DNA of 17,172 bases from Armatimonadota bacterium (GTDB lineage: Bacteria > Armatimonadota > Hebobacteria > CAIYQO01). The notes below the pieces were generated by a model. The model saw only the letters and a program-made list of their open reading frames with translations. It ran no database searches and was not told the DNA's origin. Below are positions 1 to 17,172 of this stretch, piece after piece. Numbering within the stretch: position 1 is the stretch's first letter; every line of letters begins with the position of its first letter. Both the position numbers and the translations under genes were made by a program. The DNA is taken from NCBI GenBank assembly GCA_038248345.1, contig JBBRXO010000058.1:1-17172 (forward strand), written 5' to 3'.

Positions 1-121
1 AGCCCATCCCGGCAACCAAAACCGATATTACCACACAAAATGGAAATCGTGTACGGGGATGTTGGGACAATTTTCGGGGATTTTGTTGTCGTTCCCTCCA
101 ACGCCATCCAACATATATTCA

Positions 122-3100: not shown

Positions 3101-4093
3101 TCGTGAAGGCGGGCAAGTGCAGGTCATATGGATGGAGAGTTGCTTACCTATTTGTTTCACAAATTGAACGTCGTAAATTTTTCCGTCAGTATCTCGCACA
3201 CTGAATTCAGCATGTTCCGGCGTCATGAATTGGATCAATACACGGCCAGTATTGGCCAGATTTGTCCCTTTATCCATCGTGCCATAGCCCGATTTGGGGA
3301 AGATGCCGGACAGATTATCCGCCTTGCTGAAGATATCCAACAGGCTATCTGACGCAGCAGTAACGTTAACAGCGGCCGGCGGGCGCGGCGAGATGGGGGT
3401 TTTCACCTTGGCCAGCAAGGCCGAGATATCATCACTATCGGCGGAATTGGGTATCAGGCGCGGGCCATCAACAGCCAGTACGGGCGGCGGGGCAATCTGC
3501 GGCTGCACTTCCTTAAGAAAGCGTAAGAGCACCGCTACTTTATGCTTGCACACCTCGCCATCATACGGGCAGGAGCAGGTCATCTTCAGGCCCTTGTTAT
3601 TCTCATATATCTCTACCGAATAATTGCCGTAGCTGCCGTTAACAGTGGCGGAGATGGAGCCCTCGGCTGCCGAAAACTCGATTATCTCTCCATTTCGCAA
3701 ATAGGTCTCACCCCGCTTGAAGATCGCGGAAGAGTCAGCGATCTTCATAACATCGGCGCGCGTCAACGTTTTGAAACGCGGCCCCCATGCGGGAGGATTT
3801 TCTGCGGCTGCGGTGGCGGACTTGGAGGCGGCGATCAGCGTCAGGTCATGGGCGAGGAAGCCCATCTTGCGCAGATCGATACCCTTGTGCCCCAGGTAGT
3901 TCACCTCCGCTGGCTTCATACTTAGCAAAGTGGCGGAATCCCAGGCGATGACGACATACTGCCCCTCCGCTCTATCCTTGGTCTCGACAACCAGCCCCTG
4001 CCAGCCGCCGACTTCAATACCCATGTACTGATCCATAACCCCGCGTTTGACGCTAACCTTATCGTTTACCGCAAATTTCTGCAATTTATACAT
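122..4093 (-). CDS. SNF2/SWI2-family helicase-like ATPase with two SWIM zinc fingers and a small N-terminal SH3-like domain
   Basis: Motifs: LADDMGIGKT (Walker A), VLDEAQAIKN, LALTGTPVEN, FLISLKAGGTGLNLTAADYV, DPWWNP, QATDRTHRIGQ. SWIM-type CSCPYDGEVCKH and CTCPPSRRQITPCAH. ATG at 4093 preferred over TTG at 4135; start uncertain. Confidence 0.95.
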   Translation of the reverse strand: MYKLQKFAVNDKVSVKRGVMDQYMGIEVGGWQGLVVETKDRAEGQYVVIAWDSATLLSMKPAEVNYLGHKGIDLRKMGFLAHDLTLIAASKSATAAAENPPAWGPRFKTLTRADVMKIADSSAIFKRGETYLRNGEIIEFSAAEGSISATVNGSYGNYSVEIYENNKGLKMTCSCPYDGEVCKHKVAVLLRFLKEVQPQIAPPPVLAVDGPRLIPNSADSDDISALLAKVKTPISPRPPAAVNVTAASDSLLDIFSKADNLSGIFPKSGYGTMDKGTNLANTGRVLIQFMTPEHAEFSVRDTDGKIYDVQFVKQIGKQLSIHMTCTCPPSRRQITPCAHQAAAAFTLLQQARLSAAQGQQKVTNLWEHKLSHVLSGSKATKKITPPRTIILFSLQERYRGSGWKLTPYTMPTSLLDPSILDDRAAVQLAITKMGRNNQVKEMPYYGQPPVNPLFGTAELGIMARMVSLANYQQSSSVLSFVLPQLHEALLFRGDGDYYGDPFAAPILEVDPEPRQLQLSMKNGEAGTTIQPMVPDGDDSIILTQDDTVIVNADPLWILVDDRLLRVEGDATMLQGLLESREIVIPPTEKKTFFARYLPKLLESAEISGDAIGQREELHDVPPVCRVYLSEGSENIIADVAYAYNSYELPLELTWPDSAMQYDDERETLISIHRDPVAEEVAWRALNGFGLKRDGNRFVTKMKVAPVDFLLRHVPQLQEAGYEVYGEEAIKNTKINRNAPKVSVKVSSGIDWFDVMAVVSYGELDVAISEVRKAIKKRQGYVKLPDGSLGILPDEIIAQYRHIFAMGIETETGVRMSKTQAMLLEFTLQGTDATVDAEYSQRITRLREFSGIENRPLPTKFCGELRHYQRAGYDWLHFLHDYGFGGCLADDMGIGKTVQALVFLQSLYESGHTASASLIVMPRSLLENWAREAARFTPDLKVLIHADGDRSNDHTTFDGIHLVLTTYGVMLRDLNIFKKYPFHYVVLDEAQAIKNPVSQSARAARLLRCEHRLALTGTPVENSTEELWSLFSFLNPGQLGSQEAFREQFAMPIQRNQDENAAKALRALVHPFILRRTKEQVTPELPPRTERLIYCVMTAPQKKLYQKTRDKYRAELLGMIDSGGLQQARFKVLEGLLRLRQLANDPRLVDKSYTGTSSKFEAILESLEVLREEGHRALIFSQFTSMLALLRTSLDEREWPYLYLDGKTKNRQNLVDTFQQDDGVPFFLISLKAGGTGLNLTAADYVIHIDPWWNPAVERQATDRTHRIGQERPVMVYKFIAEETVEEKILLLQEKKQALVDQLISTEGGLMKSLTRDDVAALFE

Positions 4094-4221
4094 CAGTACA
4101 TTGTCGCTGATTAAGCACTGGTGCGTCAACGGCAAAATACCCGGACTGAAATGTTAACGTCTTAGAAGTGCCCTGGAACCGGGGTTTTAATCTCAGCATG
4201 AAAGCGGTTTTGCAATTAGCT

Positions 4222-4740
4222 CTATAGTACATTCACCCGGAATTTACCTTCCAGTTTCACGTTGGTACAGGTAATATTCAGGTTAGTTGGCGTACCGATG
4301 GCATAGAGAGAAAATTGGGCGGTGGAGATAATCTGGCCCGCCTCCTGCGATAACGGCTGCCAGCCGCTATCATAATTCGATTCGCCAGCGGGGATGGTAA
4401 CAGTCATTAGTTTCTTCCCACTGGCGACCACCTGGGTGGAGGATAAGCCGCTGTTGCTGCTGACATAAATATCCGCCGTGACCTGTATGGTATCAGCATT
4501 GATCACGTGCATAGTGGCCTTGACTCCATCAAATCCGGCGATCTGCCCGAGATATTTGCTCCATTCATTATCCGCTTTCTGATTTATATCCCAATGCCAG
4601 AAGCCCGCCGGAGAGGCGGTGGCAGTAGAGAAATCAGAAACAGTGAAAGGTAGCTGAATAGGAAGCTGCAACAAAGTTCCGCCGCAACCGCCAAGGAGTA
4701 ACGTAGCAAATACTGCTATACAGGGCACCAGGTATCGCAT
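4222..4740 (-). CDS. Putative lipoprotein of unknown function (172 aa)
   Basis: Signal peptide with lipobox MRYLVPCIAVFATLLLGG-C. GAGAGGA RBS upstream. Mature part looks beta-rich. Confidence 0.8.
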   Translation of the reverse strand: MRYLVPCIAVFATLLLGGCGGTLLQLPIQLPFTVSDFSTATASPAGFWHWDINQKADNEWSKYLGQIAGFDGVKATMHVINADTIQVTADIYVSSNSGLSSTQVVASGKKLMTVTIPAGESNYDSGWQPLSQEAGQIISTAQFSLYAIGTPTNLNITCTNVKLEGKFRVNVL

Positions 4741-4813
4741 AGATTTAATTTCCTCTCATTGTACAATGGTTGTATTCTGGGTAAAAACTGGTAATCAGGA
4801 GTCTTCTTAAGGT

Positions 4814-4841
4814 ATTATATACTCCTGAATGGCCGTGTCAA
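4814..4841 (-). promoter_or_regulatory. Sigma70-type promoter for the lipoprotein gene
   Basis: Minus strand TTGACA (4841-4836), 16-nt spacer, TATAAT (4819-4814). Confidence 0.7.
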
Positions 4842-4880
4842 TAGCTTGGAGTCAGCCGTTCTATAATGTGGGAGTAAAAT

Positions 4881-5987
4881 TTGAAGATTCTGGACCGTTA
4901 TATATTGAGTTCCGTTGCCGCGACCTTCGCCTTCGGGCTGACCATGTTCATGGTGCTGCTGTTAGCAATGTTCCTGTTGAAGGATCTGATCGACTTGATC
5001 GCCACGCAGAATGTGCCGGTGCTCATCGCCCTGGCAATATTCGGCTGTAAAATCCCTGGCATGTTGGTATATGCCTTCCCCATGGCGGTGTTACTCGGAG
5101 TGCTACTGGTCTTCGGGCAAATGTCCGCCACCAGCGAGATGGTGGCGGTGCGCGCCGCCGGGGTGAGTTTTACTCGAGTTATCATCCCGGTGTTTATCTT
5201 CGCTATATTGGTCTCCGGTGTCACCTACTACTTATCTGATGTCGTCGCGAGTAACTTCAGCGACAAAGCGAAAATGCTAACCAAACTTGCGCTGATGCAA
5301 CGCGAAAATAAACCGATCTCCCTCTCTCATCAGGACGAGCAGGGACGCCTGGTCTACTCGTTGATGGCGGACAAGCTGGATGTCGGCGCGGGTGAGATGA
5401 CGAAATTGAGTTTCACCCTCTACAACGAAGGTATTCCCACCATCTTCATTTACGCCGAGAAAGCCACCTGGGACCTTGAGAAGGGACAATGGGTCTTCCA
5501 TGGGGGACGCGTCAATGCAGTGGATCCGCGTGCGGTGAACTTCACAGTGGCGCCGAATTCTCCCGATTCCAGTTTCTCCGTCGAGAGCGCCGCGCTCTCG
5601 CTTAAAGAAGATCCTTTTACCATGAATAATGCGCGAAAAAACCCCGAGGAACTCTCTTCGTTACAGATGAAAAGACTCATCAACGGTCTTACCGACCCAC
5701 TGGAGATAACGCGTTGGAATACCCGCCTGCAACAACGCTACGCTCTCCCCTTCTCCTGCCTTATCTTTGCCCTCATCGGCGCGCCGCTGGGACTGCGGAG
5801 CCACCGCAGCAGCTCGGCCGTCGGTCTGGGCGTCAGCCTGATGGTGATATTCTGCTATTACTTTGTGGCCATCTATCTGGCCACCTTCAGCGATAGCGGC
5901 CGGGTATCCCCTATGATGGCCGCCTGGACGCCCAACATCCTGGGCGGTGTCTTTGGAATCTATCTGCTCTGGCGGGCAAATCGGTAG
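4881..5987 (+). CDS. LptF/LptG (YjgP/YjgQ) family LPS export permease
   Basis: MKILDRYI N-terminus, 3 TM segments, SEMVAVRAAGVS motif, periplasmic domain, RYALPFSCLIFALIGAPLG, C-terminal AAWTPN. TTG start with GGGAG RBS; TATAAT at 4862-4867. Confidence 0.93.
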   Translation: MKILDRYILSSVAATFAFGLTMFMVLLLAMFLLKDLIDLIATQNVPVLIALAIFGCKIPGMLVYAFPMAVLLGVLLVFGQMSATSEMVAVRAAGVSFTRVIIPVFIFAILVSGVTYYLSDVVASNFSDKAKMLTKLALMQRENKPISLSHQDEQGRLVYSLMADKLDVGAGEMTKLSFTLYNEGIPTIFIYAEKATWDLEKGQWVFHGGRVNAVDPRAVNFTVAPNSPDSSFSVESAALSLKEDPFTMNNARKNPEELSSLQMKRLINGLTDPLEITRWNTRLQQRYALPFSCLIFALIGAPLGLRSHRSSSAVGLGVSLMVIFCYYFVAIYLATFSDSGRVSPMMAAWTPNILGGVFGIYLLWRANR

Positions 5988-6069
5988 GTTTTCTTCAATA
6001 TCCTGAAACTTTTCTGCCATACTGGTGTCAATAATAACGGGAGTAATCCCGAAAGTGAGGGTTGGGGAC

Positions 6070-7056
6070 GTGAAGTGCCCGCAGACTGACATAGATTGGC
6101 AAGGATATTCAGAAGCGGAAGATGTACGCATGAAGCAGCATCTGACCGGGTGTCACGCCTGCCGCGTGCGCGCCAGTGAATATGACGCGTTACACGCGTT
6201 ACTTGCCGCGTTGCCAACTGTTGCCGCTCCTGTCACAGCCGCCCCTGCAGCTGCCCCTGCTGGCGAGCTTACTTGCACCCAATTTCACGAACTGCTGGAA
6301 CAATGGCGCGAAGGTGAACTGGATACCACCAAAGCTTTCCTGATGGATGACCATATACTCTGGTGCGACCCGTGCGCCGCCGAAGTGGAACGAGCAGAAC
6401 GTCTGCAAATCCTATTAAACGATATGCCATCGCTGACAGTTCCGGCTATTGTCTCCGAGCGCATTGCCGCCGCCCAAGTGCCCTGGTGGGAACGTATCCT
6501 GCCCCCCGCACATGCGTGGCAGCGCGTCGGCTGGGCGACCGCCGCCGCTGCTCTACTGCTGGTAACCACACTGTCGCGCACCCCGCAAGTCGCAAACGTC
6601 GCGCGTGTACCGCAACAGCCACGGCCCACTTCAGCAACGGAAATGAGGCCAATAGTAGCACCGGTAACAGTACAACCTATTGCTGTATTGCCAACACCCG
6701 AAGTACATCCAGCGGTAACGATCCCCACGGTTAGAATGAAACCTGCAACGCCGCCATCTGCTACGCGCACAAAGAAATCAGAGGAAACCAACAACACTGT
6801 GGCTATTGTTTATAAGAATCCAACTGGTGCAAAGCCAGAAAAATTGCCTGTCAAAGTGGATAAAGCACCCGTAGATACAGCTCCGGTGAACATCGTAGTA
6901 CCCGAGCCAGTGGTTGTAATACCGACATATTATGATGTGGCAAAATCTGCGCTGGAGCATATCTCCGCTGAGTCGCGCTACGGAATGTCCGAAGAGGACG
7001 CCTCTAATGTGCCGGAGAATATCTCCATGCTACCTGGCGCGCGGCCAAATGGATAA
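6070..7056 (+). CDS. Anti-sigma-factor-like membrane protein with two zf-HC2 (ZAS) domains
   Basis: HLTGCHAC and HILWCDPC (HxxxCxxC), each preceded by an upstream Cys; one TM helix (WATAAAALLLVTTL); Pro/Thr/Val-rich tail. GTG 6070 (MKCPQ) preferred over 6025. Confidence 0.8.
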   Translation: MKCPQTDIDWQGYSEAEDVRMKQHLTGCHACRVRASEYDALHALLAALPTVAAPVTAAPAAAPAGELTCTQFHELLEQWREGELDTTKAFLMDDHILWCDPCAAEVERAERLQILLNDMPSLTVPAIVSERIAAAQVPWWERILPPAHAWQRVGWATAAAALLLVTTLSRTPQVANVARVPQQPRPTSATEMRPIVAPVTVQPIAVLPTPEVHPAVTIPTVRMKPATPPSATRTKKSEETNNTVAIVYKNPTGAKPEKLPVKVDKAPVDTAPVNIVVPEPVVVIPTYYDVAKSALEHISAESRYGMSEEDASNVPENISMLPGARPNG

Positions 7057-7128
7057 TAATTGGGCGAACAATCTTTGCTGAATGCCGATGACAAAGATCA
7101 TCGGCATTGTCATATCAAAGGAACTATC

Positions 7129-7986
7129 ATGATTTCAATCGTCATCCCCAGCTTCAATAAGCTCTTTTATACGCGCCGGTGTCTGGAAAGTCTGCTGCAT
7201 ACCACCGATATGGAGTATGAATTCATCATTGTCGACAACGGGTCGGCGGACGGTACGCCGGAGTACCTGCTGGCGTTCCGCAAAGTCGCCGCCGCGCAGG
7301 GAGTGGCCACCACCTTCATCCTCAACGACCACAACGTGGGTGCCTGCACCGCGCGCAACCAGGGGATAGCGGTGTGCCGTGGCAGCGAGGTAGCCTTCCT
7401 GGATAACGACATCGTGCTGCGTGACCGGGGGTGGCTGACTCGTATGCACACGGCACTGTATGCGGCGGATGACATAGCGGCGGTGATCCCCAAGCTGCTC
7501 TTCCCCTTCCCCCCTTTCGCCATCGAGCACGCGGGCATCGCCATCGCCCCCACCGGGCAGGTCGGCTACCTGGGGCGCGGGGTTGACCGCGAGGCTGCCG
7601 AGTTCAGTCAACCTTATGAGTTGCAGGGGGCGGCGAGCGCCTGCATATTAGTGCGCAAAGCGGCGCTGGACGAGGTGGGAGGCTTTGACGAGATTTTCAA
7701 CCCGGTGCAGTTCGAAGACCTGGACATTGAATACCGCATGAAAGCCGCCGGCTACCGCCTGCGTTACCAGCCAGAAGTGGAGATGTATCACTTCGAGAAC
7801 GTCACCACCGACGAAAGCCCACAGATCAACTTCAAATACCAGACCATCAAGAACGGCCTAGAGTTCAAACGCCGCTGGCGCCACGTCTTCGCCAGCGAAA
7901 ACGGCCCCGCCCCCGACACCCTCCAGTGGGCCGCCCTCCCCCGCACCCGCATCGAGGAGATCGGGGAATTGGCGGAGCGGGATTGA
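7129..7986 (+). CDS. Family 2 glycosyltransferase
   Basis: ISIVIPSFN, IIVDNGSADGT, ARNQG, FLDND (DxD), GGFDE, FEDLD. ATG 7129 follows an AAAGGA RBS. Confidence 0.93.
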   Translation: MISIVIPSFNKLFYTRRCLESLLHTTDMEYEFIIVDNGSADGTPEYLLAFRKVAAAQGVATTFILNDHNVGACTARNQGIAVCRGSEVAFLDNDIVLRDRGWLTRMHTALYAADDIAAVIPKLLFPFPPFAIEHAGIAIAPTGQVGYLGRGVDREAAEFSQPYELQGAASACILVRKAALDEVGGFDEIFNPVQFEDLDIEYRMKAAGYRLRYQPEVEMYHFENVTTDESPQINFKYQTIKNGLEFKRRWRHVFASENGPAPDTLQWAALPRTRIEEIGELAERD

Positions 7987-8105
7987 CGGTTTCTCTGTTA
8001 TTAGTAATGAAAAAAACCATGCATTAAAGCGGATAATGGTAACGAATCCGTCAATAAGTGAGAATTTCGACACTTTCCGGCATTTTTCAAGCCGATATCG
8101 CCAGG

Positions 8106-8473
8106 TCATTCGAACTGAATAACCTGGCTGGTGTTGTTGGACAGTATGCACGCTTCCATCAGTTTCATGACCCGCATGACTTCGGTATTCTGAATTTCCG
8201 GTTCGGCCTTGCCTGCAATGACCGCGATTACATTGCGGTAAAAATCGCGCACATCCGCTTTAACGCGAGGCAGGGGCTCTTCGGTGGCGGTGGTATCAAT
8301 GCGGGGCGCCATGGTCTTGGTTAAGCCAGCGCCTGCTACGATGGGTTTGGCGTCCATATCCTCGAATGACCGGAGTTTCATGATATTGCCGTTCAACGAC
8401 CAATCATCAATGAATGCTGATACCCCATGCCACCGAATCCCACGATGGCCACTCCTATCGATTTACTGTTCAT
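8106..8473 (-). pseudogene. Gfo/Idh/MocA oxidoreductase pseudogene with a large internal deletion and frame change
   Basis: ATG 8473 reads MNSKSIGVAIVGFGGMGYQHSLMIGR* (Rossmann GxGxxG). An overlapping different frame reads IDDWSLNGNIMK...AGLTKTMAPR...DFYRNV...VMRVMKLMEA, typical of the family C-terminus. Confidence 0.8.
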
Positions 8474-8538
8474 ATTTCTTCAACTCTGCCAAGTGTAGAA
8501 TTAGCTAATCTCCGGATCAGCCGTGTAGCATCACTAAC

Positions 8539-8568
8539 AGGATAGTAAGCTGCTACTAGTTGTGTCAA
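8539..8568 (-). promoter_or_regulatory. Possible sigma70 promoter for the oxidoreductase pseudogene
   Basis: Minus strand TTGACA (8568-8563), 18-nt spacer, TATCCT (8544-8539). Confidence 0.35.
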
Positions 8569-8605
8569 GCGGTCGGCAAGCGGGGGGAGGAGGGCGGTAA
8601 CACTC

Positions 8606-8704
8606 CGCGGCAGTTATCCGGAAATTCCGGATAACTGAGTCCAAAGGCAACTCTCCCTCGGCGAAGATGTTTTTGATGTGTTCACCAATTGTGCGCACAT
8701 CTTT
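8606..8704 (-). pseudogene. RhuM-family DNA-binding protein fragment
   Basis: KDVRTIGEHIKNIFAEGELPLDSVIRNFRITAA matches the RhuM-family N-terminal pattern (T-I-x-E-H-I-K-N-I-F-x-E-G-E-L...SVIRNFRITA). Similarity stops on both sides. Confidence 0.8.
8611..8637. repeat. Perfect inverted repeat (13-bp arms, 1-nt centre) inside the RhuM fragment
   Basis: CAGTTATCCGGAA-A-TTCCGGATAACTG. Confidence 0.95.
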
Positions 8705-8743
8705 ACCAGTTTCAATTATATCACAATGGTGGGTGACCCGATC
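8705..8743 (-). pseudogene. IS21-family IstB helper ATPase C-terminal fragment
   Basis: DRVTHHCDIIETG resembles the IstB motif DRLTHHCDIxETG; only 13 codons. Confidence 0.6.
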
Positions 8744-8896
8744 CGGCACCGCATAGCACTGAGACATTCACAAGGAAACGCGCCTTCTCGGTTTGCTGTG
8801 GGGCGAGTTCTGACAGAACAGTGAGCAAACAATAACATCCCGTCCCTGCCATCCCGTAATAGGATTTGGCAGTAACGTGGTGATCTTTATAATTTT

Positions 8897-8916
8897 TTGG
8901 TGCTACCTTGGTGCCA
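8897..8916. repeat. Direct repeats TTGGTGCTA / TTGGTGCCA, putative integrase arm-type sites
   Basis: Copies at 8897-8905 and 8908-8916, 11 bp apart; same motif recurs at 9027-9061. Confidence 0.6.
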
Positions 8917-8939
8917 GTAGCCTGAATTGAGGCTAAATA

Positions 8940-8984
8940 TGAATCCCCCTGACGGATTCGAACCGACGACCTGCGCATTACAAG
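8940..8984 (-). mobile_element. Attachment-site core: 3' half of tRNA-Thr(UGU), not an intact tRNA
   Basis: Minus strand CTTGTAA-TGCGC-AGGTC-GTCGG-TTCGAAT-CCGTC-AGGGGGA-T-TCA gives anticodon loop (UGU), variable loop, T-arm (one mismatch) and acceptor 3' strand. Upstream ACTGC cannot pair with TGCGC, and no D-arm or 5' acceptor strand is present. Confidence 0.85.
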
Positions 8985-9026
8985 GCAGTTGGGCGTCCGG
9001 CTGGTTTAGCCTCATATTTCGGCACT

Positions 9027-9061
9027 CTGGCACCATTTGGTGCCAGCCTTAGTGGCACCAA
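9027..9061. repeat. TGGCACCA/TGGTGCCA repeat cluster, putative integrase arm-type sites
   Basis: Inverted repeat CTGGCACCA-TT-TGGTGCCAG (9027-9046) plus TGGCACCAA (9053-9061). Confidence 0.65.
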
Positions 9062-9161
9062 TATAGCTACTTTATTATAATTACTACTCATTATCGTCAC
9101 CGTTTATCGAATACTAACGAGCAATTTTTCGTATTACAGGCTTGCAATAAATGCTAAAGCA

Positions 9162-9175
9162 CAAACATTTGTTCT
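9162..9175 (-). promoter_or_regulatory. Possible LexA (Cheo-type) box
   Basis: Minus strand AGAACAAATGTTTG fits the GAAC-RNRY-GTTY core. Confidence 0.4.
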
Positions 9176-9184
9176 ACTAATTCT

Positions 9185-9291
9185 GCAACTGCTACTCTCT
9201 TCGCTAACCACGGAAAAAGTGCACAATTGTACACACTTTGCGTATCTGCCCCTAATGCGGGCATCTCAGTGATGAGCAGTAGTTGCTCACA
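9185..9291 (-). ncRNA. Putative structured non-coding RNA
   Basis: Lies directly downstream of a strong promoter with no credible ORF. 9274-9286 pairs with 9185-9197 (11 Watson-Crick pairs, 1 G-U, 1 mismatch). Internal hairpins at 9247-9263 and 9216-9239. Confidence 0.4.
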
Positions 9292-9297
9292 AAGATA

Positions 9298-9326
9298 AAT
9301 ATACCACTTGATTGAATGGCTGTCAA
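9298..9326 (-). promoter_or_regulatory. Near-consensus sigma70 promoter with extended -10
   Basis: TTGACA (9326-9321), 17-nt spacer ending in TGG, TATATT (9303-9298). Confidence 0.75.
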
Positions 9327-9347
9327 CGGCATTGTGTCCGCAATCCC

Positions 9348-10508
9348 TCACATCCCCCGCAGTCCCATACGAAAACCTGGTGGCATGACTGGGGCTTCAC
9401 CGTCCTTATATTCTGACGCTCCCGCAGCTGTGCTTGTCACCTCTTCGCCCAGTTTGTCGCGCAGGGGTGTACTTATGAAGAGCGGCATTGATGTTCGCAG
9501 CACGGTGGCGAGGAGCTTGCGGGGATCCTGGGTTAGTTGCTCCTGCTTGTCATAGGGGCCGATCAATATCCGGTCGAATGTTTTGCTGGGTATTTTGATG
9601 GGTTCCGTGGGGACGAGCCAGAGCGAGCAGGTGGTTTGTTCATTCGCTAAACAGTTGAGCAGGGAATCCATCTGCTGCTGCGTGGTCACCTTCATGAGCA
9701 GTTCGACGTTGTCGGGCACCGATCGCAGGGATAAGACGTGCTGATATTGCCGGGACCAGAGCAGGAAGGTGCAGCCGGAGATGGATGAAAGGAAGTCGTG
9801 GAGTTTAGCGATGAGCTCTGGCTGTGGCGTCAGTATAAGATCGCTCAGCGGATTGACGAGGATCATTGGGTTGTCCAGCGGTAGATTGACCCACTGCGGT
9901 CGGGCGTTGTTGTTGAGCAGTTCCATTGGGTTGAACTTCAGCACCTGGGCACCATCAGCCGCCTGCTGATATACATCGAGACGGTAGGAGATGTAGGGAA
10001 AGGTGTCATCCGCGGTGAGGAACTGGCGAAAGTCGAGCATCTGCGCGGTGCGCATGGCCGCGACTGCCGCCTTTACAGTATCGGCCGTCAGAGGAGTTTT
10101 GGTATCCTGCTGCAGCTTCACCGCGCCCTCCCAGGCGCGCAACTGCAATTCTTCATTATGTAGGATCAACAATTGCCGCACCTGCGCTTCATTCTGCGGC
10201 AAATAACTGACGGGCAGATTCTCCGCCAATTGATGGTCGCACAGTCGCTGGTAGACTTTACTCACCTCGATTTTGATGAATGCGGTGTGGCGCGGCAACG
10301 CCCACCTCTTCTGGCAGTAGTCGGCGAAGCAGGTGTAATTGAAGATGGTTCCGCGAAACAGCCCTTGCTCTTTGATGGCCGCCAGCGCAGTGCCGACGCT
10401 GACGAAGTCACCCATGCTTGACGCCAGTATATCTTCACATTGCTCCAGCGTTTTTACCGCTGCAACTTCCGGCTCCATTACATCCTCACTAATGCTCTGC
10501 TCGATCAT
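9348..10508 (-). CDS. Paralogue C: HTH-like N-terminal domain plus degenerate DUF5131/Gp37Gp68-like domain
   Basis: N-terminal: FVSVGTALAAIKEQGLF...FADYCQKRW...PQNEAQVRQL...LTA. C-terminal: ILVNPLSDL...FLLWSR...PDNV...VTTQ...FDRILIG. ATGA overlap with the upstream stop at 10505-10508. Confidence 0.8.
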   Translation of the reverse strand: MIEQSISEDVMEPEVAAVKTLEQCEDILASSMGDFVSVGTALAAIKEQGLFRGTIFNYTCFADYCQKRWALPRHTAFIKIEVSKVYQRLCDHQLAENLPVSYLPQNEAQVRQLLILHNEELQLRAWEGAVKLQQDTKTPLTADTVKAAVAAMRTAQMLDFRQFLTADDTFPYISYRLDVYQQAADGAQVLKFNPMELLNNNARPQWVNLPLDNPMILVNPLSDLILTPQPELIAKLHDFLSSISGCTFLLWSRQYQHVLSLRSVPDNVELLMKVTTQQQMDSLLNCLANEQTTCSLWLVPTEPIKIPSKTFDRILIGPYDKQEQLTQDPRKLLATVLRTSMPLFISTPLRDKLGEEVTSTAAGASEYKDGEAPVMPPGFRMGLRGM

Positions 10509-11761
10509 TTGCGATTAGCCTCACTTATCATGTTCATCATTCGTTTCTTTCTGGCTCCTGCGTCTGTTGTTGGCGACGATACCCGATCGTGGATATTGGC
10601 TGCCGCCTGCTCAGCAGATATCACATCCAAAATAACTTGCGACACCGCTGCTTTCGCTTTTTTGGGCAATACCGTCGCCTCCCGGGCGAAGGTATTAGCG
10701 GCAAAATTACTTAGATGCAGCGGTACATCGGTATCCAGCAGCGATGCTACCAACTCGCGCAGTGCGCCGATATCATCGTCAGTCCGATCACTTTGCCAGC
10801 CAGGAGCGCCGATCAACACACGCGATAACTCGAGCTGCTTCGGTATCGTCAATCGCTCTTCCGGCACCACCCAGAGGGCGCATTGTGGTCTCAATATGCT
10901 GGTGTGCTTCCGCCAGTAGCTGGCAAATTCATCCACCTCCTGTTGTGTGGATACCAGAATCGCCAACTCCACACCTCTTGGCCAGATACCCCAGTTGTCT
11001 ATGCAGCGGAAATTCTTCGTCCAGAAGAGGAAACGATAGCTGGGTGTGCGCTGGCATAATTCATGAAGTTCACCGATGAAGGTATGCAAATTGTCGTCAA
11101 CCAACAGATCGTAGTCGGGATTGACGAGCACCAGCGGCAACACCGTGCCTGACGCGGGTGCCGCGATGGTTTCGGTGAATTGCTTGGGATCCAGCAGCAA
11201 CTCCGGTTTCCGGAAACCGAGAGGCGGTAGGCATACGTCCAGGCGATATCTGATCATGGAGAAGGACGAGTCCGCCGTGAGAAGCTGCCGGAACGAGGTG
11301 CTCCCCACTTTCCGCAGCTGAAGTACGGCTTTCCGCACCTCCGCGGCGGGCATCTTGCCGGTGCGGAATATATTGTTGGTCCATACCGCTACCGCGTTTT
11401 GCCAGGCCAGCAATTGCTCCGCAGGCTGGTGCAGAGCGAGCAGTTCGCGCACCTGCGTTTCACTGGTTGGCGACTCCAGCGTAGAGAAATCTGCATTTTG
11501 CAGACAGGCATCGAGCACATTCTTATAGGCGCGGTAGACTTTGATCTTCAGGAATGCGGTGCGCCCGGCCAACCCCCATTTCTGCTGGCAATAGTCTTTG
11601 AAGCAGGGGAAGCCGCAACTCTTATGCAGCTTCCGCTCTTTGATCTCGCTTAACGCTGCGCCGATGCTGACGAAGTCAGCCATGCCGCTCTTCAGCATCG
11701 CTTCATACCGCTTCAGTTCATTCGCCCGTTCTGTCCTCGCTGCCATGCTCATAGTCGGCAT
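10505..11761 (-). CDS. Paralogue B: HTH-like N-terminal domain plus degenerate DUF5131/Gp37Gp68-like domain
   Basis: FVSIGAALSEIKERKL...FKDYCQQKW...PTSETQVREL; VLVNPDYDLL...FLFWTKN...WPRGV...VSTQ...RVLIG. AAGGTGG RBS. Confidence 0.8.
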   Translation of the reverse strand: MPTMSMAARTERANELKRYEAMLKSGMADFVSIGAALSEIKERKLHKSCGFPCFKDYCQQKWGLAGRTAFLKIKVYRAYKNVLDACLQNADFSTLESPTSETQVRELLALHQPAEQLLAWQNAVAVWTNNIFRTGKMPAAEVRKAVLQLRKVGSTSFRQLLTADSSFSMIRYRLDVCLPPLGFRKPELLLDPKQFTETIAAPASGTVLPLVLVNPDYDLLVDDNLHTFIGELHELCQRTPSYRFLFWTKNFRCIDNWGIWPRGVELAILVSTQQEVDEFASYWRKHTSILRPQCALWVVPEERLTIPKQLELSRVLIGAPGWQSDRTDDDIGALRELVASLLDTDVPLHLSNFAANTFAREATVLPKKAKAAVSQVILDVISAEQAAANIHDRVSSPTTDAGARKKRMMNMISEANRK

Positions 11762-11773
11762 CCTTATTCCACC

Positions 11774-12865
11774 TTATTTGTACAAGAAGGGCAACAGCTC
11801 CGTGGCCACGTGTATAGCTAACCGCGGAGTGTGGGCCAGCGACTCCGTCAGCAGTTGACGAAAGGCCGCGATATCGTCGGTAGCATCTTCCGCCACCCAA
11901 CCGGAAGTCCCCACCAGCACACGCTTCACTGGCAGGTCAGCCGGCAAAGTAATCGTTTCATCTGGCAGCAACCACAGCGTATCCAACGGTATCCCCCCGT
12001 CCAGCAGCCCCTGGATTTGCTCAAAGTCCTGCTGCTGGGTGATACGCAGTACCATACTGATATGGCTGGGCCATTGTTCAATATCGCAGAAGGGGGTCAG
12101 GTCTTTCGCCCAGAGCAGATAATGCCAGGCGGGTTCCATAGCACAGAATTCGACCAGCTTCAGCAACTCGTTCGAGGAGAAATTACTGCTGGGGATATCT
12201 TTCTCCAGATCGATGAAAACAAATGGAGCTACGGTGGAAGTGCCGTCCTTGACGGCCTTCTCCGGCGCTTGATAGAGATCTAAGCCCATGAACTGATAGG
12301 TGACCTCTTCGGTTTCTTCATCGGTAATCCCCTCAATCATCAGTTCCCAGCGCTTGCGGATGCCTTGAAAGAGATGATCATCCTGCAGCTCTCCCGGCCA
12401 GGGATTATCGTCTGCCGCGGCTTTCACGAGTTTAACCTGTTGCGCCACCAGCTTCCCGGTCAGCTCAACATTATCAGCCACATAAATTTCGACGGCCTGT
12501 TGCCAGGCCGCCTGCTGTTGCTCCGCCGTTAACCCGAAGAGTTTGCGTACCTGGTTCACGTTAGTCGGATTGAACTGTGCACAATTGTGCACAACTTGAA
12601 ATACCTCATGCGACTGAATCTGCAGGTAGGCGTCGCGCTTGCTGAGATTGAACTTATCCCGACAATAGGCGATGAACCCACCCTCGATACCACGCGCAAG
12701 TTCCTTATCTTTGATGGTTTTCAGTGCCTCCCCCACCTTGAACGGCTCATTGACGGCGGCCAGAATGATATCCTCCTGCACCGCCAACTCGCGCTGCTCA
12801 TCATCGGTTAATGTGGGTGCCAGGTACATATTATATTGAATAATCGCATCGATTAATTCGTCCAT
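11774..12865 (-). CDS. Paralogue A: HTH-like N-terminal domain plus degenerate DUF5131/Gp37Gp68-like domain
   Basis: FKVGEALKTIKDKEL...FIAYCRDKF...PTNVNQVRKL...LTG; VFIDLEKDI...YLLWAKD...WPSHI...ITQQ...RVLVG. ATG 12865 with GGAGA RBS 5 nt upstream preferred over TTG 12877. Confidence 0.8.
   Translation of the reverse strand: MDELIDAIIQYNMYLAPTLTDDEQRELAVQEDIILAAVNEPFKVGEALKTIKDKELARGIEGGFIAYCRDKFNLSKRDAYLQIQSHEVFQVVHNCAQFNPTNVNQVRKLFGLTAEQQQAAWQQAVEIYVADNVELTGKLVAQQVKLVKAAADDNPWPGELQDDHLFQGIRKRWELMIEGITDEETEEVTYQFMGLDLYQAPEKAVKDGTSTVAPFVFIDLEKDIPSSNFSSNELLKLVEFCAMEPAWHYLLWAKDLTPFCDIEQWPSHISMVLRITQQQDFEQIQGLLDGGIPLDTLWLLPDETITLPADLPVKRVLVGTSGWVAEDATDDIAAFRQLLTESLAHTPRLAIHVATELLPFLYK
12576..12593. 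repeat. Perfect 18-bp palindrome inside paralogue A
   Basis: TGTGCACAATTGTGCACA, encoding VHNCAQ on the minus strand. Confidence 0.95.
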
Positions 12866-12883
12866 TTGTTTCTCCAATATATT

Positions 12884-12918
12884 TCCCCGCCGTCATCCGG
12901 ATTGAATGACGGCGGGGA
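12884..12918. repeat. Strong intergenic hairpin (13-bp stem, 9-nt loop) without a U-tract
   Basis: TCCCCGCCGTCAT...ATGACGGCGGGGA. Confidence 0.85.
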
Positions 12919-12927
12919 GGTTGCATC

Positions 12928-14757
12928 TTACCTGGTACGCACGATGACATTACGACCTTCATGTTGTTCAATCTGCGCTCCCGAAAGCGAATGAGAACGG
13001 ATTTCTTCTTCGCTCATGCCGGATTCTGCAATGATATCCTGCATACGACGTGCGATTGGCTCTGCCTCTGCTGATCTTCCACTATTTTCCAATGCATCCA
13101 CGACATTTTTTAGTGCTAGCGCAACATAGGGATGGTGCGCTCCAAGGCTTTCCTCAAAATGAGATAACACACTGCGATAGTACGGCTCCGCCTCCTGGTA
13201 CTGTTTTATGATACACAGATAATGCCCTACGTTCTGCATCGCCTCTGTTGTATTAGCCGTGCCCTCGCCCCAGGTGTCCTCGATGATCTGTACGGCGCTA
13301 CGAAGCACTTGTAGCGCCTCCGAGTATTGTCCGGCGTGATTAAGCAATACGGATATTTGTTTGGCCATATACGCAACAAAGTCGCGGTCTTCCTGCGTTG
13401 GAGCCCATTGTGTAAATGCAGCAAGATAGGCTTCCCCCATCTGTTGCTCTTCTCCCAGCCAGGCCCAATAACCGCGTACTTGCGAATAATCATTGGAGCC
13501 GGAAGAAAAATAGAAGCGATTGATATCCAGCAAGCAGGCGCGCAGCCGCTCGCGGTGCCCGGCCTGCTGCAGGGTCCAAAGGAGTTCATCGCAGGTGTGA
13601 CCAGATATCGGTCTTTCTACGAAATAATCCGCCAAATCCAGATAGGCTGCCTGGCGTGCGTCGGCATCAGGAACGAATAGCTCTTGTACCGCCTGACGCA
13701 GGCTACTATGCTCAATACTGAGGAGGCTATCGCACAGCAATATGTGTGGATCCAGCACCGGATCGACTGCGTTCCAGCATTCACAGGGTAATGGCGTGCC
13801 ATCCTCACCCAGCAGCATGATTAATTCTGCTGGGAGTAAACCATGGTGAGTGGCCCACAGGTGAGTGAGTGTACGGCGGAAGAGGTCGTGTGGCGCCGAC
13901 TGCTCCTGCGGTACATCCTGCTGCCAGTTGTTAATGAGACGCAGGAAAAGGTCGAGTGGATTATCGGCCTTCAGGTAGTGGTCAACGATGGGGTGCAGGT
14001 CTTTGCTGTTGCCCAGCCGCCGTAGCTCCTCCAGCATAGTGCGCAGGAAGAGCGGATTCTTCGTGCCAGCGGCGGTGACTAGCTGAGTTCGTATGTCGGC
14101 ATCAAGAGTCAAGTCAGCCAACTCGCAAAATAGGCTGATCATGGCATCAGTTTCATCCTCGGTAGCGAGGGGTAGCTTGTATTCGGCCCATTTCCACTTG
14201 CGCACTGCGTGGAGATCCGGCCCCGGAGTCACGGACGCGATCAGCGTGACACGCTCATGCAAGATACTCTTGATCCAATCCAGATTGGGCTCCGCGTCGC
14301 CATCCCGCAGCCGATCGAGGCCGTCCAGTACGATCACAATCTGCCCCCGTTCAGCCGCCTGCCCCAGCAACACCGGCACCATCTCGCACATCTTCGTCAT
14401 ATCAGTAGATACCTCACCGCGGAGGTTAAAATGGGTTTTCAAATCCTCCGCCAGTCGACGCAGGATGCTATACGGTGAAGCGCTATCCGGCGTGGTGCCG
14501 ATGTAGTGCTGAAAAATAAAGCCGCAGGCATGAAAATCCGCCCACTTGCGTGCCCAGGCCGCCAGCAGCGTCGTCTTCCCGCACCCACTCACCCCACTAA
14601 CCACAATCCCACGACCGCGTTCGTCCCCATCCTGCGCCACCAGTGCATCCAGCGCGGCCAGATGCACAGGACGGTCAATACCAGCAATCAGCCTACGCTG
14701 CGCATAAGCCGTCTGTTCGATCCCTTCACTCGGATCGTCGCAATAATCAATTATCAT
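12928..14757 (-). CDS. NACHT-like (NPHP3/TEP1-type) STAND NTPase with C-terminal TPRs and no N-terminal effector domain
   Basis: Walker A GVSGCGKTTLLA, Walker B IVIVLDGLD, NPLFLRTMLEEL, kinesin-light-chain-type TPRs (YQEAEPYYRSVL...LGAHHPYVA). AAGGAAG RBS. Confidence 0.88.
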   Translation of the reverse strand: MIIDYCDDPSEGIEQTAYAQRRLIAGIDRPVHLAALDALVAQDGDERGRGIVVSGVSGCGKTTLLAAWARKWADFHACGFIFQHYIGTTPDSASPYSILRRLAEDLKTHFNLRGEVSTDMTKMCEMVPVLLGQAAERGQIVIVLDGLDRLRDGDAEPNLDWIKSILHERVTLIASVTPGPDLHAVRKWKWAEYKLPLATEDETDAMISLFCELADLTLDADIRTQLVTAAGTKNPLFLRTMLEELRRLGNSKDLHPIVDHYLKADNPLDLFLRLINNWQQDVPQEQSAPHDLFRRTLTHLWATHHGLLPAELIMLLGEDGTPLPCECWNAVDPVLDPHILLCDSLLSIEHSSLRQAVQELFVPDADARQAAYLDLADYFVERPISGHTCDELLWTLQQAGHRERLRACLLDINRFYFSSGSNDYSQVRGYWAWLGEEQQMGEAYLAAFTQWAPTQEDRDFVAYMAKQISVLLNHAGQYSEALQVLRSAVQIIEDTWGEGTANTTEAMQNVGHYLCIIKQYQEAEPYYRSVLSHFEESLGAHHPYVALALKNVVDALENSGRSAEAEPIARRMQDIIAESGMSEEEIRSHSLSGAQIEQHEGRNVIVRTR

Positions 14758-14977
14758 AATGTCTTCCTTTCAACGGGACAGATAGGCCATGCCTTGTCAC
14801 CGTTTAATAAGGATAATCGATGCGATAGGACGTAAGCTGGCCTAGTGATTGGGGGAGGAAGATTATTTTTGAAGTTTTTTTTGGGGGGCGCAGGACAACG
14901 CAGTTGACTCATATAAATGTCCTCGTGTGTCATAATAGGACATAGTCACAGAGCAACACCCCAATGAATAAATCGTG

Positions 14978-15006
14978 TTTACATCGTCGCCTATATGCTA
15001 TATCAT
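14978..15006 (+). promoter_or_regulatory. Putative sigma70 promoter for the TIR-STAND gene
   Basis: TTTACA (14978-14983), 17-nt spacer, TATCAT (15001-15006). Confidence 0.5.
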
Positions 15007-15055
15007 TGTCACTAATTACCCGTTTGCCCGAGAAACTACTTTAAGGAGCGACTCA

Positions 15056-17172
15056 ATGCCATACGATTTATTCATTTCTTACTCGCGCCGGGACGATCGG
15101 CAGGGGCGGATTACCGAACTCGTCGAGCGCATCAAGGCGGACTTCGCCTCCTTTGCTGGCAACAATGGCCGAGAACTTGTTCCTTTCTTCGACAAAAAAG
15201 AAATCCATGGGATGCAGGATTGGCGGCAGCGCATCCTGCATGGACTGCGCGAATCGCGGATGTTGCTTGTATGCCTTTCTCCGACGTATCTCCAGAGCGA
15301 TAATTGCGAGTGGGAATTCATCGAATACCTTAAATACGAGATCGGCCACCTGCACGGCTTCAACGGCGTCGCGCCGATTTATTATGTCCAGGTTCCCGAT
15401 TGGAACGACAAAGACTTTGACCAGAACTGCGCCGCATGGGTAGCCGAACTGCGCAAGCGCCAGTACATTGATCTGCGTCTGTGGCATGACCAGGGCGAGG
15501 CCGCATTGCGCGAACCCGCAGTGAAGGAGCGCATGGGCAAGCTAACCCGCCAGATATCCGAAACCATCAAACGCGGCGAGCGCGCCGAGAAGAGTCTCGG
15601 CAATGTGGAGGCGCACAACCCGCACTTCATTGGCCGTACCGCCAATCTGCGGATGCTGCGCGAAAACTTCGTCAAGCCCGGCCACATCGGCGTGGTCACC
15701 GCCGTCAACGGCGTGGGCGGGTTGGGCAAGACCGCGCTGGCTATCGAATACGCCCACGCTTTTGCCCACGAATACGGCGGCGGACGCTGGCAAGTGCGCT
15801 GTGCGGGCAAGGACGACCTGAGCCTGGCCCTCGCCGAACTCGCCACGCCTATCGGCTTCGAATTCACCGACGACGAGAAGAAAAACGCCGACCTCCAGTT
15901 CGAGCGTACCCGCCGCGAGTTGAAGAAACTCTCCGATGCCCACGAACCGCACCGCTGCCTGCTCCTCCTCGACAACGTTGATCAGCCCGACCTGCTCGAC
16001 CCAGCGCAGGTCGCGCGGCTCAACGGCGGCGACTGGCTGCACGTCCTCGCCACCACGCGATTGGGGGGAAACGAACTGCACGGCGCGCACCACGACCGCT
16101 CGTTTCTGCCTGTTGACGAACTGCCGCCGGACGACGCCCTCGCACTCATCGAGAGCTACCAGCCCGACGGCTTTTTCCGCAGCGAGGGGGAACACGACGC
16201 GGCACGCGAGATTGTGCGGTTACTCGGTTGTTTCACCCTTGCCGTAGAATCCGCCGCTGTATATCTCGGCCATTTTGCTTACGATGTCACCTGCGCCGCT
16301 TTTCTCGTACGGTTGAAACAGGAAGGGCTGGAAGGACTCGATACCGCCGTTACTGATGAAAGGCTGACCGTGTTGCACGGGGAGAAGCGCCTGTGCGCGA
16401 CGCTCCAGCCGACGCTGGATAGTCTTGGTGCAGCGGAGATACTGACGCTGGAATATGCCGCTCTACTACCACCCGACCAAGTGCCTTTGCTGTGGCTACG
16501 CGCGCTGGTGGCAGAGACGTTTTCAGAAATGGAACGCGACAGCGAGCCGGGCTATACCGATCCATGGGCAAATGTTTGGCGGTGTCTCATCAGCCTGCGC
16601 TTATTTCAGACAGCGGATATCGATCCCACCACCCTATTCCCCCGCCTGGTGCGTATGCACCGCCTCATCGGTGAGATAGTACGCAAACGCGATGGCGAAA
16701 GCGTAGCGCACGCAGACAAATTACTTGATCATGCCTGGGCACGTGCCATTTTCTTACGAGATAACTGGTTACCCTGGGAGAACCGCTGGGAGCTGGAACC
16801 ACTACTGATAATGTCGCAGGCAAAGCTCGATAGCGACAACCCCAGGATAGCAACTATGCTATCAAATGTGAGCAGTGTCCTCAATAATCTGGCACGCTAT
16901 CGGGAATCTGAGCCATTGATGCGCCGCGCGCTGCAGATTGATGAGGAGAGCTATGGGGAGAACCATCCCCATGTCGCCACAAAACTGAACAACCTGGCGG
17001 CGTTGCTGCAGGCCACTAACCGGCTGGCGGAGGCGGAGCCATTGATGCGCCGCGCGCTGCAGATTACTGAGGAGAGCTATGGGGAGAACCATCCTGATGT
17101 CGCCAAACACCTGAACAACCTGGCGCTGTTGCTGCAGGCCACTAACCGGCTGGCGGAGGCGGAGCCAATGAT
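15056..17172 (+). CDS. TIR - NB-ARC - TPR NLR-like protein, 3'-truncated by the window edge and absent from the ORF track
   Basis: TAAGGAG RBS and ATG 15056. TIR: MPYDLFISYSRRD...LSPTYLQSDNCEWE. Walker A GVGGLGKT (15710-15733), Walker B LLLLDNVD, ATTR, MHRL, then TPRs. All in one frame with no stop before 17172. Confidence 0.93.
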   Translation, partial: MPYDLFISYSRRDDRQGRITELVERIKADFASFAGNNGRELVPFFDKKEIHGMQDWRQRILHGLRESRMLLVCLSPTYLQSDNCEWEFIEYLKYEIGHLHGFNGVAPIYYVQVPDWNDKDFDQNCAAWVAELRKRQYIDLRLWHDQGEAALREPAVKERMGKLTRQISETIKRGERAEKSLGNVEAHNPHFIGRTANLRMLRENFVKPGHIGVVTAVNGVGGLGKTALAIEYAHAFAHEYGGGRWQVRCAGKDDLSLALAELATPIGFEFTDDEKKNADLQFERTRRELKKLSDAHEPHRCLLLLDNVDQPDLLDPAQVARLNGGDWLHVLATTRLGGNELHGAHHDRSFLPVDELPPDDALALIESYQPDGFFRSEGEHDAAREIVRLLGCFTLAVESAAVYLGHFAYDVTCAAFLVRLKQEGLEGLDTAVTDERLTVLHGEKRLCATLQPTLDSLGAAEILTLEYAALLPPDQVPLLWLRALVAETFSEMERDSEPGYTDPWANVWRCLISLRLFQTADIDPTTLFPRLVRMHRLIGEIVRKRDGESVAHADKLLDHAWARAIFLRDNWLPWENRWELEPLLIMSQAKLDSDNPRIATMLSNVSSVLNNLARYRESEPLMRRALQIDEESYGENHPHVATKLNNLAALLQATNRLAEAEPLMRRALQITEESYGENHPDVAKHLNNLALLLQATNRLAEAEPM
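16910..17172 (+). repeat. 126-bp tandem repeats encoding 42-aa TPR units
   Basis: Units start at 16910, 17036 and 17162; units 1 and 2 differ at 9 of 126 nt. Confidence 0.95.

Follow-up and report, generated by a model that had tools for sequence, protein, structure and literature searches.

Candidate dimeric DNA binders that join a ParB/Noc-type domain to a cysteine-less DUF5131-like barrel at the end of a tRNA-integrated island in Armatimonadota

What role could be played by three tandem genes that each place an enzyme-like barrel, without its cysteines, behind a DNA-binding domain? Such genes, here called A, B and C, occupy positions 9,348 to 12,865 of a 17,172-nucleotide stretch from an Armatimonadota bacterium (assembly GCA_038248345.1, contig JBBRXO010000058.1, positions 1 to 17,172; hereafter the window). 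Each encodes a predicted ParB/Noc-type helix-turn-helix (HTH) domain followed by a barrel that resembles DUF5131. From sequence and predicted structures we tentatively propose, giving the idea slightly less than even weight, that A, B and C are non-catalytic, site-specific dimeric DNA binders that control the end of a tRNA-integrated island.

The three genes are intact and strongly diverged. All lie on the minus strand and none contains an internal stop: gene A (11774-12865) encodes 363 amino acids from an ATG preceded by GGAG, gene B (10505-11761) 418 and gene C (9348-10508) 386, with B and C sharing the architecture of A. Genes A and B are separated by 12 bp, and B and C overlap in an ATGA. 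By BLASTP, B and C are 34% identical over 357 amino acids (E 1e-54), A and B 26% (E 2e-34) and A and C 24% (E 7e-18), and the similarity spans nearly the whole protein length. Common DNA persists between B and C as the 19-mer GCCGAYGCTGACGAAGTCA, within repeat family D2 (10367-10448 and 11635-11716; 71% over 82 nt). All of this agrees with a first-pass annotation made from the sequence alone, which had described three co-directional intact genes with these lengths and junctions, diverged paralogues similar along their whole length, and shared DNA between B and C. That annotation had also named a dN/dS near 1 as a point that would speak against it. A variant strain in another sample from the same study has contigs that cover each of the three genes in part; they give a ratio of non-synonymous to synonymous change (pN/pS) of 0.27, based on 40 of 170 variant-strain differences (21 synonymous, 19 non-synonymous; p 5e-5). 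In this partial sample the trio is apparently under purifying selection, and decay is disfavoured. No further copies were found by tblastn in the 2.98-Mb genome.

The N-terminal domain points to the DNA-binding part of ParB-type proteins. A model of B (predicted local distance difference test, pLDDT, 87.7; from a 28-row alignment) combines a helical N-domain with a beta/alpha C-domain. In this predicted structure, residues 13-153 resemble the DNA-binding domain of Noc (Z 9.6, root-mean-square deviation (rmsd) 3.0, 114 aligned) and Spo0J (Z 8.7), with the alpha domain of Raf1 (Z 10.8) scoring above Noc. The chains of the trio begin at the DNA-binding domain, and the N-terminal CTPase (ParBc) part is absent. 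None of the three proteins has a ParB match in Pfam, NCBIfam or PHROGs, where a related protein, P0160, does match ParB, and no parA lies among the window's main open reading frames (ORFs). Searches of Pfam, PHROGs, NCBIfam and PADLOC assign A, B and C to no significant family, with weak unnamed PHROGs matches on the N-domain only. The PADLOC check proposed in the first-pass annotation gave 0 matches of the PADLOC 2.0.0 system models to A, B or C at E<=0.1. A profile of the three proteins matches 10,451 clusters; about 20 of the best 150 are full-length matches, and nearly all the others match through the N-domain alone. Among 144 relatives scanned, several carry the N-domain on Dam, MT-A70 or N6/N4 methyltransferases or on an intact DUF5131, which bears out the earlier description of a DNA-binding domain of the kind seen on phage methyltransferases.

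The C-terminal domain is predicted to be a radical-SAM partial barrel. Residues 154-352 of the B model find their best match in spore photoproduct lyase (Z 8.8, rmsd 4.3, 181 aligned); other matches are viperin (Z 8.0), DesII and SuiB, all radical SAM enzymes, and unrelated TIM barrels reach Z 7.3 and below. Profile comparison by hhalign aligns 25 C-domains of the family, meaning the trio and its cysteine-less relatives, with four intact DUF5131 proteins at a probability of 97.2% (E 3.8e-11, 162 columns). The Atlas gives 0.91, with DUF5131 in 27 of 30 matches, and the family profile recovers the genome's own DUF5131 at E 6e-5. The Pfam model itself (PF07505, gathering cut-off 28.9 bits) does not match A, B or C at E<=1; two relatives lie just above the cut-off, P0018 (29.9) and P0023 (31.0).

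Within this barrel, the cysteine loop alone has been replaced. The motif C-x(2-7)-C-x2-C is absent from A, B and C and occurs in 0/25 family C-domains (one of the 25 is a fragment without the cysteine region), and it is present in 4/4 intact controls. The strand before the cysteines, which holds the W of WNP, is kept as F-x-G-I-x-x-R-W/L, and counterparts of FVxSMxDLF, FxxLTK, WPxNxW and WxIxG follow in order. The aspartate that follows strand 2, D218 (the D of SMSDLF), is almost always kept; the loops on the active-site face vary freely, and few barrel residues are invariant across the family. In radical SAM enzymes the cysteine triad ligates an essential 4Fe-4S cluster. Because the triad is missing, no 4Fe-4S radical chemistry is expected, and we regard a barrel without such chemistry as very highly probable. 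The earlier claims, that the later DUF5131 motifs occur in order without a cysteine cluster and that an Fe-S-less DUF5131-like domain stands behind the HTH, are upheld by the predicted fold and the profile comparison. A C-terminal domain without DUF5131 or radical SAM similarity, which would have spoken against them, is not what the alignments to DUF5131 and spore photoproduct lyase indicate.

For what might such a barrel be kept? Predicted pairing offers one answer. A model of the B-C complex scores 0.73, and the best of three controls 0.00; of 157 solved complexes, 116 reach the mark used for this score, as do 2 of 215 mismatched pairs. At least 93% of the contacts agree between runs, and the partner pLDDT is at least 77. 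The predicted interface is symmetric and is formed by N-terminal helices and the last barrel helix. It includes R314, R335, L342 and H348, which are among the best-kept C-terminal residues and thereby suggest that the dead barrel has been retained as a dimerisation surface, replacing the C-terminal domain of ParB. A symmetric dimer, as predicted, would fit a palindromic site. The heteromer that the first-pass annotation had thought possible is consistent with this model. One relative, P0023 (589 aa), carries two cysteine-less barrels in tandem behind one HTH, an arrangement consistent with barrel-barrel pairing.

A candidate palindromic site can be read from gene A itself. Just behind the HTH-coding part lies a perfect 16-bp palindrome, GTGCACAATTGTGCAC (12577-12592), spelling the codons V-H-N-C-A-Q. 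A non-coding copy, GTGCACAATTGTACAC (9219-9234), stands 114 bp past the stop of gene C, framed by codons like a scrap of an A-type gene; it scores as a weak terminator because T5 follows it on the minus strand. The palindrome characterises A-type genes, the subtype to which gene A belongs: it is perfect in 6/6 A-type genes with DNA, in three versions with paired changes on both arms, where codon use gives a chance of 0.001-0.012 per gene. It is absent from the inside of four B/C-type genes, and a non-coding copy also lies downstream of a B/C-type gene at another locus, L019. The pattern occurs exactly twice in the 2.98-Mb genome, both times at the trio locus. Across five family-bearing genomes, all five zero-mismatch matches sit at family loci, and five genomes without the family contain none. 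The potential to encode a palindrome at this place extends to 45 of 97 N-domain relatives, versus 8 of 97 shuffles (97 of 114 relatives were examined). We consider it likely, from these patterns, that the HTH domain reads the palindrome.

The same site occurs in viruses. Of 37 viral contigs with the exact site (30 distinct contexts), 10 have it within a gene belonging to this HTH family (two duplicate pairs among the 10), with one further weak match, and several of these 10 genes encode an RRTAYQ-like recognition helix. A search of 596 Gb of genomes gave 55 exact matches, fewer than the 139 expected by chance, with 3 inside HTH-family genes; these genome matches were kept out of the independent support.

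Other inverted repeats lie nearby. A perfect 16-mer, CGGTTTCCGGAAACCG, sits inside gene B (11204-11219), its core resembling TTCCGGAA, and a palindrome beyond the att site, GTTATCCGGAATTTCCGGATAAC (about 8614-8636), has a TTCCGGAA-like core. The stretch 9213-9292 on the minus strand, about 80 nt between a consensus promoter and a T run, is predicted to fold into three hairpins and could be a small RNA; the folding energy is -28.8 kcal/mol for an 87-nt stretch, a value without a shuffle control. Rfam has no match for this stretch, and an Rfam scan of the window and five loci returned nothing.

The trio ends close to an island boundary. The att core (8945-8984, minus strand), 364 bp past gene C and 235 bp beyond the non-coding palindrome, duplicates the 3' part of the genome's tRNA-Thr(TGT) without a mismatch over 40 bp; the full tRNA-Thr(TGT) lies near the end of contig C19, pointing off the contig end. 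On sequence grounds, the att core marks the boundary of the island. It is flanked by TGGCACCA repeats (9028-9045, and more at about 8895-8915), which we take to be arm-type integrase sites. Between gene C and the second palindrome, a promoter-like site on the minus strand (9298-9326; sigma-70 TTGACA-17-TATATT, 11/12, extended TG) faces the palindrome and the att core. This is a consensus match only, one of 85 such sites in the genome. The window's contig has no integrase; three tyrosine-recombinase matches elsewhere in the assembly are unlinked to it. No excision joint was seen in the contigs of two DNA runs.

Does this arrangement recur? The full-length cysteine-less family is confined, in the searches made, to the window's own bacterial family, where the short cysteine-less fusion is present in 4 of 11 genomes. 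In 389 other genomes of the phylum it was not found, three having matched through the N-domain only. Word-based homologue searches found 3-4 proteins only, and locus scans with family alignments found none in viral contigs, none in genome contigs and, in metagenomes, three overlapping contigs of one locus. At 7 of 9 loci of this short fusion, the family gene ends 170-600 bp before a tRNA gene or a 3' fragment of one. Whole tRNAs are found at L016 and L021 (Thr) and at L017 and L039 (Leu), and 3' fragments in the window (Thr) and at L018 (Leu) and L019 (Lys). Whole tRNA genes alone are so placed at 4 of 9 loci, versus 24 of 1987 ORFs in the window's own genome. The count of nine leaves aside L042 (an intact DUF5131) and L083 and L084 (long ParB-type cysteine-less fusions), the latter two having no tRNA feature. 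Cargo differs at every locus seen. The features that recur across loci are the att-site position and the gene-internal palindrome, neither of which appears in the first-pass annotation.

The trio as a unit recurs less often. Another genome encodes A-, B- and C-type proteins on one 76.5-kb contig (locus tags _10555, _10560 and _10580; P0019, P0006 and P0014), and a B-type and a C-like protein are probably on one 4007-bp contig. Of the 8 other loci for which DNA is available, 7 show a single family gene on the contig. The tandem trio that had been put forward as a system is thus real, but it is not an obligatory unit.

A, B and C are old subtypes, as judged from their phylogeny. B and C fall into one clade (100/99) with A outside, and B groups with P0006 and P0007 (98/95), a topology that rules out a local triplication. 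Genomes of the same bacterial family also encode an intact HTH-DUF5131 fusion (P0008), intact ParB-DUF5131 fusions (P0160, P0164) and longer cysteine-less fusions (P0162, P0163). In a C-domain tree, the cysteine-less rows lie on one side of a branch with an approximate likelihood ratio (SH-aLRT) support of 95, in an alignment that kept the motif columns and where long branches meet. This is compatible with a single loss of the cysteines; repeated independent losses are not shown, one change being enough in this tree.

How does the trio compare with known proteins? PMC9477430 places DUF5131 within the radical SAM superfamily, in megacluster 5-2, beside spore photoproduct lyase. With DUF5131/Gp37Gp68 (PF07505) the trio shares the ordered barrel motifs, the predicted radical-SAM partial barrel and a mobile-element setting; unlike it, the trio lacks the cysteine triad, falls under the Pfam cut-off, stands behind an HTH and has no adjacent TcmP-like partner. 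The same domain order is found in the intact fusions P0008, P0160 and P0164 from genomes of the same family, and in P0054 from elsewhere. P0008 has its palindrome at the same codon position as the A-type genes, and P0160 and P0164 lie near tRNA or integrase features, but all of these keep WNP-x-x-GC-x3-C-x-YCYA. With ParB, Spo0J and Noc and their parS or NBS sites, the trio has in common the predicted HTH fold, a 16-bp palindrome in or near its own gene and predicted C-terminal dimerisation (for the ParB layout, see the main text of bioRxiv 10.1101/2025.10.10.680097). It differs in having no N-terminal CTPase, no parA in the window and a dead enzyme barrel as its dimer part. Because the CTPase domain is absent, a sliding clamp would not be expected. 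Fusions of ParB with enzymes that modify DNA have been described (bioRxiv 10.1101/2025.10.10.680097; PMC13229309), and the phage ParB-fused or ParB-assisted enzymes described in the relevant parts of these sources likewise put a ParB-related module together with a DNA-modifying enzyme on mobile DNA; there, a CTPase fold accompanies an active enzyme, whereas the trio has the HTH part and a dead one. The main text of the preprint does not mention DUF5131 or radical SAM, and the domain tables in its supplements could include these fusions. Literature on DUF5131/Gp37Gp68, radical SAM with ParB, pseudoenzymes and parS within parB yielded no description of the family, supplements being outside the scope of that search. 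Judged by the defining features of these groups, as read from sequence, the trio is outside DUF5131, the radical SAM enzymes and ParB. It appears to derive from a ParB-HTH/DUF5131 fusion and, by analogy, probably works like a CTP-independent site binder of the ParB/Noc type.

Combining these observations, we propose the following model. The HTH domains of A, B and C would read the palindrome in gene A and the copy beside att, and the dead barrel would pair the proteins into dimers on it. B and C, without an internal site of their own, would act with A or with each other on the two remaining sites. A bound dimer may repress its own genes, the outward promoter at 9298-9326 or both, or may shape the att end; this step, drawn by analogy, we put forward with somewhat less than even confidence. 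After excision, the promoter would face the integrase, as in ICEclc, where excision places the outward promoter Pcirc before the integrase (PMC5812530). The likeness lies in a promoter at the element end that faces outward across att. Pcirc is a strong promoter, whereas here there is a consensus match, and the window's contig has no integrase; the part of PMC5812530 that deals with Pcirc describes no operator or dedicated repressor.

Several observations weigh against this proposal. The fold matches are moderate, with Z values near 8-9, and a search by Foldseek alone found no match in the PDB at E<=0.001. Because the paralogues share the surface, the complex model does not distinguish a preference for hetero- or homodimers. 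The internal palindrome belongs to the HTH family at large and may reflect inherited autoregulation without an island-level role, and its downstream copy may terminate an 80-nt RNA. A promoter match this strong lies downstream only in the window, with a weaker one in 1 of 8 other downstream regions, and with no integrase on the contig the Pcirc-like geometry is hypothetical. Among the nine loci, four come from one genome; the family gene faces a whole tRNA at four and a fragment at three, and two (L014, L015) have no tRNA feature. L014 has a tyrosine integrase 1.6 kb further on, and L015 has neither. The selection estimate draws on 40 of the 170 differences. An internal stop interrupts L016, a remnant is what is left at L021, and the neighbour at L015 is shortened; with several relatives broken, the genes seem often to be lost.

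Other readings of the trio can be set against the same evidence. The dead fusions might interfere with phages, occupying the palindrome on phage DNA or pairing with phage HTH proteins, so that loading of phage DNA-modifying or regulatory proteins is blocked to the benefit of the island's restriction and STAND cargo. The viral HTH genes that hold the site, several with the RRTAYQ-like helix, speak for this, as do the fusions of the N-domain to methyltransferases and intact DUF5131, the defence-like cargo beside family genes (DrmD-like helicase, AlbA_2, TIR-STAND) and the three diverged paralogues, which would broaden the range of partners. Yet 0 of the 10 viral genes has an enzyme domain of the DUF5131 kind, the family shows no clear link to intact DUF5131 above the Pfam cut-off (3/5 family-bearing genomes versus 2/7 others), and a role in cis accounts better for where the genes lie, next to att, and for the two sites within the island itself; we think interference unlikely. 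In a fuller version, defence islands captured a phage-type self-docking DNA-modifying enzyme whose catalysis was lost and which multiplied into dimerising decoys for the palindromes found inside phages' own HTH genes, the dead radical-SAM barrel serving for pairing. This we hold quite unlikely; if true, it would amount to a novel strategy, anti-phage or satellite-like, for jamming the site-specific loading of phage proteins. It is just as improbable, in our view, that the genes are autoregulated relics, in which a phage-type HTH-enzyme gene without catalysis persists as a self-repressing passenger with no island-level function, its paralogues gathered as insertions stacked up at att. The broken copies found at 2-3 of the 8 other loci, the scarcity of invariant barrel residues, the scrap-like downstream site and the family-wide occurrence of gene-internal sites would fit relics, but about 20 diverged full-length members retain the whole barrel and the predicted dimer face, pN/pS is 0.27, and A-, B- and C-types recur on a single contig of another genome.

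Two further readings assign the trio a sensory role. The barrel could be a reader of a ligand or DNA lesion (SAM, a modified or damaged base, or a nucleotide signal) that switches HTH binding, making each protein a one-component sensor. Its best fold match is a DNA-lesion enzyme and D218 is nearly invariant, but the other conserved polar residues sit in the predicted dimer interface and the loops of the active-site face vary freely, which leaves this reading decidedly improbable. The first-pass annotation had instead suggested, as a possibility, a sensor or regulator tied to the STAND genes next to the trio, which encode NACHT-TPR and TIR-STAND proteins. The NACHT-TPR gene is indeed co-directional, 51-63 bp upstream of A, and without an effector domain of its own, and a variant-strain contig bridges it and A. 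Neither window STAND protein has a match at 15 loci tested, including the 8 other family loci; on contigs of 4-18 kb, this covers the near neighbourhood only. A strong hairpin separates the NACHT-TPR gene from A, and cargo differs from locus to locus. The proposed link is thus not borne out, and such coupling is very improbable indeed. We return to dimeric binders at the island's end as the reading we prefer.

Both STAND genes are, by this sequence comparison, island cargo and not conserved partners. The NACHT/NPHP3-like STAND-TPR gene (12928-14757, minus strand) lacks an N-terminal effector domain, and a 12-bp G+C-rich stem-loop without a T run (12885-12917) lies between it and A. The TIR-STAND(NB-ARC)-TPR gene (15056-17172, plus strand) is truncated where the contig ends. 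A search for the NACHT-TPR protein in five relatives gave nothing at E<=1e-10, in fragmented genomes and with no positive control. Beyond att, a Gfo/Idh/MocA oxidoreductase pseudogene (8106-8472, minus strand) with its start and end kept and its middle missing lies just outside, and the chromosomal side holds a SWIM zinc finger SNF2 helicase gene (122-4135, minus strand; 1337 aa, with an extra N-terminal part). Copies of att-flanking sequence occur elsewhere in the same genome (G000), at C19:1-220 (after the whole tRNA-Thr), at C28:4400-4520, where a phage-like element that carries a serine-recombinase-like gene ends, and at C63:607-677, beside another tRNA-like fragment. Related elements, these copies indicate, used several insertion sites.

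Further elements accompany the relatives. An unnamed gene of about 200 aa lies directly upstream of the A-type gene at 5/5 single-gene A-type loci (L014:3529-4200, L016:3219-3854, L017:1155-1772, L018:10372-10962, L039:1897-2499), with an N-terminus like NRxNAKxSTGPxT..GK..V..NAxKHGL. It has no match in Pfam, NCBIfam or PHROGs and is absent from the window's own genome; homologues occur in 19 of 201 genomes of the phylum. The motif AAAC(A/G)AAGCCA stands downstream of the family gene at all five of these loci and at the remnant L021 (L014:5594, L016:1960, L017:2979, L018:9120, L021:7284, L039:3612). It is absent from the window, L015 and L019, has four copies in the window's own genome, and is possibly a site of the protein encoded by the upstream gene. 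The longer fusions in G002 (L083:6282-7808, L084:9582-11219) join a degenerate ParB-like N-part to a cysteine-less DUF5131 in recombinase-bearing islands, one of them near candidate Thoeris/TIR-like genes, judged from ORFs. The window's own genome has an intact stand-alone DUF5131 gene (C72:6219-7699; Pfam E 3e-98), and the gene upstream of it is presumably a split TcmP-type partner.

Few descriptions exist of radical SAM domains without their cysteines, and the literature searched gives no function for DUF5131. Against this background, the family appears to show an enzyme barrel put to new use for dimerisation, with a candidate DNA target that can be read from the gene. The site that it shares with phage HTH genes raises possible cross-talk between islands and phages and offers a way into a very large HTH family that has no name (10,451 clusters matched). 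The recurrent att-site position suggests that tRNA-integrated defence islands have a control element not described before.

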